DNA of 10,967 nt from a virus (taxonomy: Duplodnaviria; Heunggongvirae; Uroviricota; Caudoviricetes): the IMG/VR virus record IMGVR_UViG_2541047881_000003. The stretch is one strand, 5' to 3'. The position numbers were made by a program, and so were the translations under genes. This document shows, piece by piece, positions 2,842 to 10,967 of the stretch. Below the pieces are notes generated by a model. It was not told the DNA's origin. It saw only the letters and a program-made list of their open reading frames with translations, and searched no databases. Every line of letters begins with the position of its first letter. Position 1 is the stretch's first letter.

Positions 2842-3150
2842 GTGACTCACATGACAAAAACAGTATCAACCAGTAAAAAACCCCGTAAACAGCATTCGCC
2901 TGAATTTCGCAGTGAAGCCCTGAAGCTTGCTGAACGCATCGGTGTTACTGCCGCAGCCCGTGAACTCAGCCTGTATGAATCACAACTCTACAACTGGCGC
3001 AGTAAACAGCAAAATCAGCAGACGTCTTCTGAACGTGAACTGGAGATGTCTACCGAGATTGCACGTCTCAAACGCCAGCTGGCAGAACGGGATGAAGAGC
3101 TGGCTATCCTCCAAAAGGCCGCGACATACTTCGCGAAGCGCCTGAAATGA
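2842..3150 (+). CDS. insE: IS3 transposase OrfA (helix-turn-helix / leucine zipper)
   Basis: 102-aa [35 protein letters not shown]...; ends 4 nt after the orfB start; slippery A-AAA-G at 3113-3117. Confidence 0.9.
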
Positions 3151-4013
3151 AGTATGTCTTTATTGAAAAACATCAGGCTGAGTTCAGCATCAAAGCAATG
3201 TGCCGCGTGCTCCGGGTGGCCCGCAGCGGCTGGTATACGTGGTGTCAGCGGCGGACAAGGATAAGCACGCGTCAGCAGTTCCGCCAACACTGCGACAGCG
3301 TTGTCCTCGCGGCTTTTACCCGGTCAAAACAGCGTTACGGTGCCCCACGCCTGACGGATGAACTGCGTGCTCAGGGTTACCCCTTTAACGTAAAAACCGT
3401 GGCGGCAAGCCTGCGCCGTCAGGGACTGAGGGCAAAGGCCTCCCGGAAGTTCAGCCCGGTCAGCTACCGCGCACACGGCCTGCCTGTGTCAGAAAATCTG
3501 TTGGAGCAGGATTTTTACGCCAGTGGCCCGAACCAGAAGTGGGCAGGAGACATCACGTACTTACGTACAGATGAAGGCTGGCTGTATCTGGCAGTGGTCA
3601 TTGACCTGTGGTCACGTGCCGTTATTGGCTGGTCAATGTCGCCACGCATGACGGCGCAACTGGCCTGCGATGCCCTGCAGATGGCGCTGTGGCGGCGTAA
3701 GAGGCCCCGGAACGTTATCGTTCACACGGACCGTGGAGGCCAGTACTGTTCAGCAGATTATCAGGCGCAACTGAAGCGGCATAATCTGCGTGGAAGTATG
3801 AGCGCAAAAGGTTGCTGCTACGATAATGCCTGCGTGGAAAGCTTCTTTCATTCGCTGAAAGTGGAATGTATCCATGGAGAACACTTTATCAGCCGGGAAA
3901 TAATGCGGGCAACGGTGTTTAATTATATCGAATGTGATTACAATCGGTGGCGGCGGCACAGTTGGTGTGGCGGCCTCAGTCCGGAACAATTTGAAAACAA
4001 GAACCTCGCTTAG
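3147..4013 (+). CDS. insF: IS3 transposase OrfB (DDE catalytic domain); normally expressed as an OrfAB fusion by -1 frameshift
   Basis: 288-aa ORF in the -1 frame relative to orfA; IS3-family transposase sequence (…[33 protein letters not shown]…[10 protein letters not shown]…). Confidence 0.9.
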
Positions 4014-5886: not shown

Positions 5887-6090
5887 CATTTTCACTTTTT
5901 TAAATCCAACGACAGACGGCTGGCATTTAAGTATTGTGAAATATTATCAAATGTAATCATCATTGATTTACAAAAGATACATTTTGCCCCGAAAGGATTC
6001 ATGTCAGAAACATCAAAAGATGATGTTCTATACTGGGAACCATGACAACACGGGCATCTAAAGTGAATATGGTTTGTAATATTGTCTACC

Positions 6091-6303
6091 TCAAAGCGCC
6101 ACTACATGAACAGCGGCAGGACCTTTAGGTCCGTTCTCAATACCAAATTCAACTTCCTGATTCTCAGTTAATGTTTTGAAATCGTTGCTCTGAATTGCTG
6201 AGAAATGGACAAACACATCTTTGCTGCCATCTTTCGGCGTGATGAAACCAAAACCTTTTTCAGGGTTAAACCATTTCACTAAACCAGTCATTTTGTTAGA
6301 CAT
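6091..6303 (-). CDS. cspI: cold shock protein, CspA family (70 aa)
   Basis: [38 protein letters not shown]… with RNP1 (KGFGFI) and RNP2 (VFVHF) motifs; C-terminal half matches CspI rather than CspA/CspB; long AT-rich leader upstream (6304-6665). Confidence 0.9.
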
Positions 6304-6665
6304 AATTATTACCTTTTGAAGAAATTAGCCCTTGGGCAGAATGGTCCGAAAAAAAATATCAGAGAGAAAAACCAACAAGGAAATCTCAAGAGGTACAAAT
6401 AATAAAATTATAACAATGACTGCTTCAGATAAATTTGTAACAAACCAGAACACCATTAACGCATGATTAACCACCCATAGCAAGGATTACTTTTGTAAAG
6501 AAAAACACAGCAATGAAAGAATAGCTTTATTTATTAATAAAACGTGTCATTCTGATTAAGACCTTTTATCTTACCCTTAAGATTTCAGGAATTTTGGCTC
6601 ATGGAAGAGTCCTTTTTATTTAAATTTTACATTCCGCGATGTAAATGTTCCGATTTAATATTACC

Positions 6666-7689
<1,024 letters not shown>

Positions 7690-7693
<4 letters not shown>

Positions 7694-8001
7694 ATATATT
7701 TATGATGAGGACGCTCGTGCTTATTGGCAGGATTTTCAATCTTAAAGGAGTACTGATGCTGCAGATAAGACTCAACTTTTTCTGACAATTTTTCTGCTAC
7801 TTCCAGGAAGACTTGCCGGACGCTCCTTCTGGCTGCTGCCTCATAAAACTCCAGCGCAGCTCCTTCAACACGGTCCATGGCGACATCCAGGTCAAAAATT
7901 TCACCGTCAAAGCGTTCCTTGTCCTGTAAGGCTACAGTTACCGTAACTTTATTCTCAAAATTACGGACTCCTTTCACAACCAGTTCATAGTCTTGAGTCA
8001 T
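7690..8001 (-). CDS. ydfR: YdfR-like prophage protein of unknown function (103 aa), between holin and endolysin
   Basis: ORF with strong SD (GAGGAGAG) upstream of ATG 8001; translationally coupled to the endolysin; position matches Qin order rrrQ-ydfR-essQ. Confidence 0.7.
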
Positions 8002-8005
8002 TGGA

Positions 8006-8221
8006 TTACTCTCCTCTCGCAGCCTTACGCCTGTCTTCTTTAATCTTGAAATAAAGATTTGTCAGATACGTCAGCAGGCCAAAAACCAGGCTACCCAGCA
8101 CACCGATTGCAGCCCACTGTGACGGAGTTACTTTATCGAGTAACTGTAATGCCCAGAAACCAGCATTACCCGCCGATGTGCCATAGGCAACACCTGTTGT
8201 TAACTTATCCATTGATTTCAT
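8006..8221 (-). CDS. essQ: class II holin, phage 21 S-like pinholin with dual-start motif (71 aa)
   Basis: [71 protein letters not shown]: two TM segments, Met1-Lys2-x-Met4 dual start, charged C-terminus; the ORF-track extension to 8299 is not used. Confidence 0.85.
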
Positions 8222-8441
8222 ATCCTCACCCCGATGTACACGGATGGTGCAATATGTTTGAAAAAGATCGGAGTCTACGGGGTAGTTTTGACAGCACACG
8301 TTGTTCTCAACGGCGCTAAAGAAACATACACATTAAAAATGTGAGTAATTATTTTGAAAGAAAGTCATATATAAAATAATAATACGAGAAATGTTTTCAT
8401 ATTTAGTGTACTGTATACGGCCATTTATACAGGAAAAGCCT

Positions 8442-8612
8442 ATGTCAGAACGTAAAGACTCAAAATCACGCCGTAATTATCTCGTTAAATGTTCCTGCCC
8501 AAACTGCACCCAAGAGTCAGAACACAGTTTTTCAAGAGTACAAAAAGGTGCCCTTTTGATCTGCCCTCATTGCAACAAAGTATTCCAGACAAATCTTAAA
8601 GCTGTAGCCTGA
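8442..8612 (+). CDS. ynfU: small zinc-ribbon protein (56 aa) with CxCPNC…CPHC motif; possibly YnfU-like
   Basis: ORF track frame 8391..8612; ATG 8442 has AGGA 7 nt upstream; four-cysteine Cys-x2-Cys…Cys-x2-Cys arrangement; symbol is a tentative recollection. Confidence 0.45.
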   Translation: MSERKDSKSRRNYLVKCSCPNCTQESEHSFSRVQKGALLICPHCNKVFQTNLKAVA

Positions 8613-9099: not shown

Positions 9100-9375
9100 G
9101 TGGCTTCTGTTTCTATCAGCTGTCCCTCCTGTTCAGCTACTGACGGGGTGGTGCGTAACGGCAAAAGCACCGCCGGACATCAGCGCTATCTCTGCTCTCA
9201 CTGCCGTAAAACATGGCAACTGCAGTTCACTTACACCGCTTCTCAACCCGGTACGCACCAGAAAATCATTGATATGGCCATGAATGGCGTTGGATGCCGG
9301 GCAACTGCCCGCATTATGGGCGTTGGCCTCAACACGATTTTACGTCACTTAAAAAACTCAGGCCGCAGTCGGTAA
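9100..9375 (+). CDS. insA: IS1 InsA (transposition regulator, zinc finger/HTH)
   Basis: 91-aa [43 protein letters not shown]…. Confidence 0.9.
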
Positions 9376-9797
9376 CCTCGCGCATACAGCCGGGCAGTGA
9401 CGTCATCGTCTGCGCGGAAATGGACGAACAGTGGGGCTATGTCGGGGCTAAATCGCGCCAGCGCTGGCTGTTTTACGCGTATGACAGGCTCCGGAAGACG
9501 GTTGTTGCGCACGTATTCGGTGAACGCACGATGGCGACGCTGGGGCGTCTTATGAGCCTGCTGTCACCCTTTGACGTGGTGATATGGATGACGGATGGCT
9601 GGCCGCTGTATGAATCCCGCCTGAAGGGAAAGCTGCACGTAATCAGCAAGCGATATACGCAGCGAATTGAGCGGCATAACCTGAATCTGAGGCAGCACCT
9701 GGCACGGCTGGGACGGAAGTCGCTGTCGTTCTCAAAATCGGTGGAGCTGCATGACAAAGTCATCGGGCATTATCTGAACATAAAACACTATCAATAA
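9294..9797 (+). CDS. insB: IS1 InsB (transposase catalytic part; expressed as InsAB' by -1 frameshift)
   Basis: 167-aa ORF in the -1 frame relative to insA; A6C slippery run at 9351-9357. Confidence 0.9.
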
Positions 9798-9812
9798 GTT
9801 GGAGTCATTACC

Positions 9813-9821
9813 GGTAACCTT
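9813..9821. repeat. IS1 target-site duplication, right copy (GGTAACCTT)
   Basis: Identical 9-mer immediately flanks both IS1 ends. Confidence 0.85.
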
Positions 9822-10266
9822 TTGACCTTCAAATAAGGTTCGATAATTATCATTCTGAATCGCAGAAAAATGCACAAACACATCTTTACTACCATCAACA
9901 GGAGAAATAAAGCCGAAACCTTTATCAGCGTTAAACCATTTTACTAAACCAGTCATTTTATTTGACATTCTACATTCCTTAACTTGAGCCTTTCGGCATA
10001 AATGGTTTGCATAACAGAAACGACTTCGTACTTAATTGGAGAGACTCAAAGAAGGAATAAGTGAATAACACCTGAAATGAGAACTGCTTTAGTAAACTAC
10101 TTCGTATATCGTCTGTTCTTCAAACCGACGCAGTCATTAACTCATAGTTGAACATATGAAGCAATGTTTATTTTAGACATCCAGCCACCTTCAATCCTAT
10201 CAAAAAAGTAGTTTTCTCCAGGAACGTGTGTATGGTGCACCAGGTTATCAGTATTAAGGAGTTTTT

Positions 10267-10643: not shown

Positions 10644-10967
10644 TTATCTCGTCACCTTCCTCAATTGCGCTTCCGCGTATGCTTCTTCCTGCCAGCACTT
10701 TGTTACCAGTTTACCAATGACGTCCGCATACCCCTTATACCACTGATAATCGGTCAGGTCTGGTACCAGCTTCTGGACATGACGTCGTGCCAGCGTGGTC
10801 GGTAAACGACTAAACCGGTTTCCATTACAACGCCCACAAATCTTATATACCGGTACGCCATGAAACCGGGTTCTTTTTTCATCCAGAACAATCCCTTTAC
10901 CCTTACACCCTCTGCACGCTGTGCTGACTTCGCCCTTACCATGGCAATGCTGACATAGTTCCTTCAC
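10644..10967 (-). CDS. quuQ: late-gene antiterminator Q, C-terminal part (5' end lies beyond the window)
   Basis: Translation …[51 protein letters not shown]… has the Cys-x2-Cys…Cys-x2-Cys zinc-binding region typical of Q proteins; reading frame is open to the window edge. Confidence 0.8.

Follow-up and report, generated by a model that had tools for sequence, protein, structure and literature searches.

The closest described relatives of the locus analysed here are the lysis cassettes of phage 21 and of 933W, in which the gene of a dual-start holin (S) is followed directly by that of the endolysin (R). In the phage-21-type cassettes of SfI and ev099, S and R abut as TAATG, and in Min27, a phage of the 933W type, R starts exactly 4 nt past the holin stop codon (ggggagagTAAgctgATG). 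The locus under study, contained in a window of 10,967 nucleotides (the whole stretch of DNA that was analysed), shares with these cassettes the holin family, the gene order and the strand, and its endolysin belongs to the family found in the 933W-type phages, including Min27. However, the slot in which R starts in Min27 is here taken by the ATG of a further open reading frame (ORF), ydfR, and R is pushed downstream. The sequence-only reading of this DNA had regarded adjacent holin and endolysin genes as the reference arrangement and the intervening ORF as an extra, and the related cassettes bear this out.

The whole cassette lies on the minus strand. The holin gene, essQ (8006-8221), encodes a 71-aa S21-type (pin)holin with a dual start at M1 and M4 (MKSM), recognised by Pfam Phage_holin_2_1 (E = 1e-33) and by a holin PHROG, and annotated as essD/essQ. 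The endolysin gene, rrrQ (7160-7693), encodes a 177-aa protein of the lysozyme family (Pfam Phage_lysozyme, E = 1e-23; PHROG endolysin; annotated as rrrQ) with a Gly/Ala-rich, SAR-like N terminus, and has no Shine-Dalgarno sequence upstream. It is followed by rzpQ (6666-7163), the gene of the Rz i-spanin (Pfam DUF2514; PHROG Rz-like spanin), in which an Rz1-like lipoprotein ORF with the lipobox LTSC is embedded in another frame (6716-6988; PHROG Rz-like spanin, E = 2e-8). Two cold-shock genes on the same strand flank the cassette. One of them, a cspI-like gene (6091-6303, minus strand), lies just downstream of Rz and has a full cspA thermoregulator leader (region 6064-6449; Rfam RF01766, 112.8 bits); on the other side, a terminator-like hairpin (8694-8675) is present on the late (minus) strand between cspB and the holin gene. 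Just upstream of the latter, on the opposite strand, is ynfU (8391-8612, plus strand), a zinc-ribbon ORF (Pfam YnfU, E = 5e-31).

The ORF between holin and endolysin comprises 103 codons plus the stop (7690-8001, minus strand), with its ATG at 8001-7999 and its TGA at 7692-7690. A gap of 4 nt, TCCA (8005-8002), separates the holin stop codon TAA (8008-8006) from this ATG, the joint reading GCGAGAGGAGAG-TAA-TCCA-ATG. Its Shine-Dalgarno sequence, GGAGAG (8009-8014), lies within the final holin codons (R-G-E), in the context GCGAGAGGAGAGTAATCCAATG; the same holin-internal arrangement was kept in 8 phage loci, and in Min27 it is R itself that uses GGAGAG. At the other end, the stop codon overlaps the endolysin start codon (7693-7691) in an ATGA (7690-7693), the sequence running ...AAATATAT-ATGA-ACACA. 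The coordinates thus agree with the wedged position, 4 nt past the holin stop and overlapping the endolysin start, that had been proposed earlier, to which only the strand has to be added. Since, in a simple consensus scan, no promoter-like site was detected from the holin start up to ydfR and no terminator-like site after ydfR, and since the Shine-Dalgarno sequence lies within the holin gene, the co-expression with the late or lysis genes that had also been proposed is a fair inference. An Rfam scan gave no RNA family overlapping ydfR. The base composition of the gene is not deviant, with a GC content of 0.436 compared with 0.458 for the holin gene, 0.506 for the endolysin gene and 0.428 for the window. 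For its part, the description of the product as acidic applies in a mild form (pI 5.56 and net charge -4 for the whole protein), residues 1 to 72 having a pI of 4.6 and the tail, residues 73 to 103, a pI of 8.1.

The ORF matched Pfam DUF1327 (PF07041) over the full length of the model (positions 1-93 of 93), with 179.9 bits (gathering cut-off, 25; E = 1.1e-53). It also matched five PHROGs of unknown function (34145, 2735, 2091, 406 and 1085), and gave no match in NCBIfam or PADLOC. A 2.1-kb stretch around it matched numerous RefSeq chromosomes of E. coli at 100% identity; in these the genes carry the names essD/essQ, ydfR ("YdfR family protein"), rrrQ, rzpQ and ynfU, the locus being that of the Qin prophage. 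Comparison with K-12 ydfR (UniProt P76160) gave an identical sequence in the same genomic position (essQ-ydfR-rrrQ-rzpQ in Qin), with no difference. By these matches the ORF can be identified as ydfR, the Qin-prophage copy and name-giver of the DUF1327/YdfR family. The earlier label "uncharacterised" must consequently be withdrawn for the ORF, a named gene recovered at 100% identity, although the family is still without an assigned function and ydfR was still in the E. coli y-ome list of uncharacterised genes in 2024 (PMC11551758). The literature retrieved on "DUF1327" consisted of one incidental paper, and that on essQ/rrrQ offered nothing useful.

The distribution of the gene was wide in number and narrow in host range. 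The 312-nt ydfR was found at 99 to 100% identity in at least 1411 records, and, of 5426 complete E. coli genomes, 3647 contained ydfR-like DNA, a single genome having at most 6 copies. A further 100 phage records contained it, all of them from Escherichia lambdoid or Stx phages; phage Tritos shows an identical arrangement, with ydfR (TRITO_47) at 100% identity. When 1.8 billion cluster representatives were searched exhaustively with phmmer, 57 matches only were returned, and a scan with one genome per species placed YdfR in E. coli, E. ruysiae, E. albertii and Shigella alone, together with two apparently mis-binned MAGs. Distant members of the family were few and lay on unassigned metagenome and IMG/VR contigs, while scanning IMG/VR with the family alignment yielded near-identical Qin-type loci only, so that counts were gained and diversity was not. 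The gene itself is already known and, on these searches, its family is small, centred on Escherichia and Shigella and their phages. Its members are carried by roughly two in three complete E. coli genomes, as well as by phages such as H-19B and BP-4795, which are classic Stx phages.

Three kinds of candidate match were rejected. The MAG matches labelled "Veillonella" and "Bacillota" were 84 to 100% identical to E. coli sequence and were taken as binning contamination. A 3128-aa metagenomic repeat protein (P0188) reached E = 2.7e-11 against YdfR through six near-identical repeats of 7.6 to 9.5 bits each and was judged a repeat-inflated chance match, and a sub-threshold match to HamA (E = 0.005) on the tail of a 174-aa variant was disregarded. 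With regard to the Stx phages, the 399-nt S-R gap of H-19B (AF034975.3), the classic Stx1 phage, is unannotated in GenBank and holds an intact 114-aa DUF1327 ORF (2221-2565 of the fetched locus, L025) of the same type as ORF47 of BP-4795.

The remainder of the window has the appearance of a decayed prophage. A pinQ-like recombinase ORF (2619-2804) is cut short and is followed by an IS3-family element (insE-like ORF, 2842-3150; transposase, 3147-4013); the Qin remnant is disrupted by IS3. A cspB-like cold-shock gene (9732-9968, minus strand), the frame of which enters IS sequence, seems interrupted by IS1-type insA and insB ORFs (9100-9375 and 9294-9797), and its 5' leader still matches the Rfam cspA thermoregulator (9801-10129, 116.6 bits). 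At the window edge, a 107-aa ORF with CxxC zinc-finger motifs (10644-10967, minus strand) probably represents the C-terminal portion of antiterminator Q of Qin (ydfT/quuQ), judging by its position and by how related genomes are annotated. None of the complete E. coli genomes in the collection was colinear with the whole window, the best coverage being 88%.

The window was compared by blastn with 16 related loci. A left block, consisting of the holin gene and ydfR codons 1 to 68, stopped at 7796, and a right block, the endolysin module, started at 7703, 10 nt before the endolysin ATG. Between the two mosaic blocks lies an allele-specific middle/tail segment of 92 nt (7704-7795, minus strand; approximately codons 69 to 99), and matches to E. 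coli genomes likewise break at nt 206 of ydfR. One locus (L012), which carries a 174-aa form of the protein (P0023), matched the window through codon 99 and then contained approximately 360 extra nt before the endolysin module. Because this locus amounts to the Qin arrangement plus approximately 360 nt, the 103-aa form of Qin and Tritos is a deletion derivative of the 174-aa form, with some 360 bp lost. The stop codon TGA of ydfR is part of the start of the endolysin gene itself (ATGAAC), and the last residues of YdfR together with its stop codon derive from the endolysin leader and the endolysin's own ATGA.

Among 100 fetched loci, the gap after the holin was 3 to 4 nt wherever a holin was detected. 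The distance from ydfR to R, for its part, ranged from -4 to +511 nt, with protein lengths of 72 to 279 aa, and the ATGA overlap was found only in the Qin/Tritos allele (69 of the 100 loci, all near-identical). The tight joint between holin and ydfR is a feature of the family in Escherichia phages, and the ATGA coupling is not. The translational coupling to the endolysin claimed by the sequence-only reading was right in that an ATGA is present here, but it does not extend to the family and is a by-product of the deletion. Past approximately codon 68 the gene is a recombination hot spot, with varied tails, spacers and reverse-strand ORFs. An unrelated reverse-strand ORF was seen right after the DUF1327 gene in five loci (L005, L006 and L017-L019). 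In 5 of the 100 fetched DUF1327 loci (cluster P0038), a frameshifted ydfR allele of 129 aa runs 83 nt into rrrQ in an alternative frame, the same frame that in the window forms a spurious 54-aa ORF (7611-7775); these frameshifted alleles suggest decay in dead prophages.

The endolysin gene had no Shine-Dalgarno sequence in any DUF1327-bearing locus examined, its leader reading CCTGATAAATATCC-ATG elsewhere and CATCATAAATATAT-ATG here. In these AT-rich leaders (7694-7703 in the window, and the homologues in L002-L008), in-frame TGA TAA stops are found 9 to 12 nt upstream. Because the endolysin gene lacks a Shine-Dalgarno sequence of its own, termination and reinitiation at the ATGA is a plausible route to endolysin translation in the Qin allele. 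As a consequence, a simple deletion of ydfR in Qin or Tritos takes out the sole evident translational entry to the endolysin, and its phenotype would be ambiguous.

This arrangement raises the question of whether the protein matters at all, as the insert could act in cis, shifting the endolysin away from the strong Shine-Dalgarno sequence of the holin and altering endolysin dosage, with a product that has no role. The use of the GGAGAG at the holin 3' end by R in the 933W-type phages is in line with such an effect, as are the displacement of R behind an AT-rich leader without a Shine-Dalgarno sequence in all DUF1327-bearing loci (CCTGATAAATATCC-ATG, or CATCATAAATATAT-ATG here) and the hypervariable, often truncated tail region. 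However, purifying selection acts on the N-terminal part of the protein, dN/dS for codons 1 to 68 being 0.14 to 0.41 across alleles that are 45 to 85% identical in protein sequence. Moreover, this part was kept down to 30% identity at unrelated genomic positions, each time with its own Shine-Dalgarno sequence, it has a confident predicted fold, and specific protein partners were obtained for it in a published screen (PMC13232886). A mere cis effect or remnant is thus very unlikely. ydfR is a real gene and not a chance reading frame, as concluded from the full-length DUF1327 match and the dN/dS values of the N-domain.

An alignment of eight phage versions, with proteins of 72 to 268 aa, delimited a conserved core from residue 1 to approximately 72, followed by unrelated tails. 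Invariant positions of the core include Y5, E6, L7, V9, K10, G11, K18, R44, E46, G47, A48, L50, Y53, E54 and A57, and some members of the family (72 to 76 aa) consist of this domain alone. The N-domain (codons 1-72; 7786-8001, minus strand), on which the alignments, the dN/dS values and the structure prediction concur, holds three beta strands and the start of a long helix. Thus, AlphaFold2, run on a 28-sequence alignment, packed antiparallel strands 5-14, 18-27 and 34-43 on a long helix formed by residues 50-84, with pLDDT values of approximately 85 to 95 in the core and below 50 for residues 86-103 (disordered); the prediction for a 176-aa long variant was uninformative (pLDDT of 40). Remote-homology search and structure prediction had been proposed in the sequence-only reading, and the second gave the confident beta-beta-beta-helix core. 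The YdfR profile gave nothing below E = 0.18 against PDB sequences, and no sequence or fold match to anything characterised, hence no homologue of characterised function, was found. YdfR has neither a transmembrane segment (maximum Kyte-Doolittle 19-residue window, 0.67; GRAVY, -0.61) nor a signal sequence, and it accumulates when expressed in E. coli (PMC13232886). The product of ydfR, a genuine gene under selection, is a soluble cytoplasmic protein whose functional unit is the acidic beta-beta-beta-helix N-domain of approximately 70 residues.

The position of ydfR had also led to the proposal that it could modulate lysis timing. In such a role, the acidic N-domain would bind the basic cytoplasmic C-terminal tail of the pinholin or the unreleased SAR endolysin and so delay or sharpen triggering, which is consistent with the location of ydfR 3 to 4 nt past the stop codon of an S21-type holin, in the same homology block, in every Escherichia locus with a detected holin, and with the complementary charges of the two proteins (pI 4.6 for the YdfR N-domain versus 9.7 for the holin, which also has a basic tail). 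PMC13232886 in addition cites an envelope-integrity screen whose list includes a ydfR mutant; however, the main text of the screen paper does not include ydfR, and a Keio cassette polar on rrrQ could account for the result. The comparison of cassettes argues the other way. The S21-type holin was present in 438 phage records and DUF1327 in 100, approximately 23% of the holin-type records having ydfR and 77% lacking it, among the latter those of the 933W type with the same R family. Lysis evidently works without ydfR with the same partners, to judge from these gene contents. Furthermore, overexpression of ydfR produced neither a growth or lysis phenotype nor rRNA damage (PMC13232886).

Known lysis regulators offer no closer parallel. 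The antiholins T4 RI and P1 LydB and the Mu releasin gp25 (PMC9239132) resemble ydfR in lying inside lysis cassettes, beside a holin or a SAR endolysin, but they are membrane or periplasmic proteins, whereas YdfR lacks both a transmembrane segment and a signal sequence, showed no similarity to them and belongs to a family that also occurs outside lysis cassettes. YdfR is probably not an antiholin or a releasin. Neither is it an N-terminally extended isoform of the holin, since it is a separate ORF and the holin has its own M1/M4 dual start.

The occurrences outside lysis cassettes were found in tail modules, far from any holin. Two junctions of lambda-like tail modules, M (Phage_min_tail)/L and L/K, are occupied by YdfR homologues of 76 aa, and the gpI/gpJ junction by one of 72 aa; no holin was detected near the tail-cluster homologues, which were assigned by precomputed PF07041 matches and by PHROG matches with E values of 1e-16 to 1e-17. 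In phage Evi, a 72-aa DUF1327 gene and a convergent 98-aa ORF (phrog_25324, of unknown function) together lie between S and R (L007, 2501-3079), and the same DUF1327 plus phrog_25324 unit, with a partner of 98 to 99 aa, lies between gpI and gpJ in two IMG/VR siphophage contigs (L106 and L107, 4001-4587). The partner ORF of Evi is 60% identical to that of the two contigs (E = 5e-45), and the similarity is limited to approximately 580 bp. Because this two-gene unit is common to S-R and gpI-gpJ junctions, the DUF1327 domain travels as a cassette among different late-operon junctions.

With the frequent absence of the gene from holin-type records, the tail-cluster homologues, the shared cassette and the lack of a growth defect on overexpression (PMC13232886), the proposal of a role in lysis timing was given up as improbable. 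Instead, and jointly with its identification as ydfR, the gene is very probably an optional late-operon passenger of Escherichia lambdoid phages, accessory and not part of core lysis. New in the present analysis are the breakpoints at codon 68 and at -10 nt, the deletion origin of the ATGA, the occupation of the R start slot, the homologues in tail modules and the shared two-gene cassette.

A passenger could serve the lysogen and not the phage, and ydfR, expressed from a resident or defective prophage, for instance by read-through from cspB, might help the host under cold or envelope stress. In agreement with this, 3647 of 5426 E. coli genomes have retained ydfR, also within decayed remnants of Qin like the IS-ridden window, and cspB, with a thermoregulator of the cspA type, is located upstream on the same strand in both Qin and Tritos; evidence for cold induction of the cluster in expression databases is cited in PMC13232886. 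However, the gene yielded almost no RNA-seq reads under standard growth (PMC13232886), no promoter-like site was detected between holin and ydfR and no terminator after it, and the terminator-like hairpin at 8694-8675 stands between cspB and the holin gene. The holin and the endolysin would, in addition, be expressed along with ydfR, and the frameshifted prophage alleles (5 of 100 loci; P0038) suggest relaxed selection after the death of the phage. A benefit to the lysogen is therefore regarded as unlikely.

The sole functional data on YdfR point in another direction. Gopel et al. (RNA Biol 2026; PMC13232886) recovered residues 1 to 72 of YdfR in a bacterial two-hybrid screen with RNase G as the bait, and the same fragment and, to a lesser degree, the full-length protein scored with RNase E's N-terminal half. 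The full-length protein did so with one RNase E construct only, Rne1-597 (PMC13232886). In addition, Rne1-598-FLAG co-eluted with Strep-YdfR, and the eluate held DNase-resistant nucleic acid, namely RNA (PMC13232886). The region mapped in that study, residues 1 to 72, is the conserved mobile N-domain that was defined here independently by comparison, a coincidence that renders the RNase E lead more credible.

Other observations limit what the contact can mean. The co-purification was performed without nuclease treatment and RNA was present in the eluate, so the contact between YdfR and RNase E may be RNA-bridged. The acidity of the N-domain (pI 4.6), unusual in a direct RNA binder, counts against an RNase E/RNA mechanism, and the evidence on RNase E was obtained by overexpression and in two-hybrid tests. 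Because overexpression hardly altered the transcriptome and did not slow growth (PMC13232886), YdfR does not strongly inhibit or activate an essential enzyme. All considered, docking of the N-domain on RNase E, either alone or complexed with RNA, with a modulation of late RNA decay, is put forward tentatively, as a possibility that falls short of an even chance.

The course of events envisaged for the late passenger would be as follows. YdfR would be produced late in infection off a pR'-type late transcript, its translation being coupled to, or reinitiated after, that of the holin, and in the Qin allele the ribosomes terminating on ydfR would probably assist the endolysin start. The N-domain would then bind host RNase E at its catalytic N-terminal half, possibly with RNA, as extrapolated from the literature to the phage. 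RNA decay would thereby be tuned late in infection, for example by making long late transcripts or host RNAs more or less stable, and lysis would not be timed; the variable C-terminal tails would supply allele-specific properties. Taken as a whole, this best explanation has about an even chance of being correct. A broader version, in which the DUF1327 N-domain of approximately 70 residues is a portable module of temperate siphophage late operons directed at RNase E's catalytic half, located where holin and endolysin genes or tail genes meet, in some cases accompanied by a convergent partner ORF, and fitted with interchangeable C-terminal tails, is speculative and rather unlikely. If true, it would represent an unrecognised class of late-acting modulators of RNA decay in lambdoid and Stx phages. 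In any case, the placement of ydfR outside the lysis machinery redirects experiments to RNA metabolism in late infection.

T4 Srd and T7 gp0.7 are small phage proteins that reportedly contact host RNase E, and Srd, like YdfR, reportedly acts on the N-terminal half of the enzyme. Dip (gp37) of phiKZ is also a small phage-encoded RNase E effector (PMC4980113). The likeness of YdfR to these three proteins concerns the reported target only, with no sequence or fold similarity detected. Furthermore, they come from virulent phages, are encoded by early genes and clearly affect RNA decay, whereas ydfR is a late-operon gene of temperate phages whose overexpression hardly altered the transcriptome (PMC13232886).

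The other option of the sequence-only reading, an unrelated moron, came nearer the truth than lysis timing, in that ydfR is inserted between otherwise adjacent genes, but it fails with respect to transcription signals. A classic moron comes with a promoter and a terminator of its own and is expressed in the prophage state. In contrast to a moron in this strict sense, ydfR has neither, is translationally embedded in the late operon and does not deviate in base composition. Like the lambdoid morons lom and bor and the inserts of Stx phages, however, ydfR is an extra gene of patchy occurrence, portable and lodged between late genes that otherwise adjoin.
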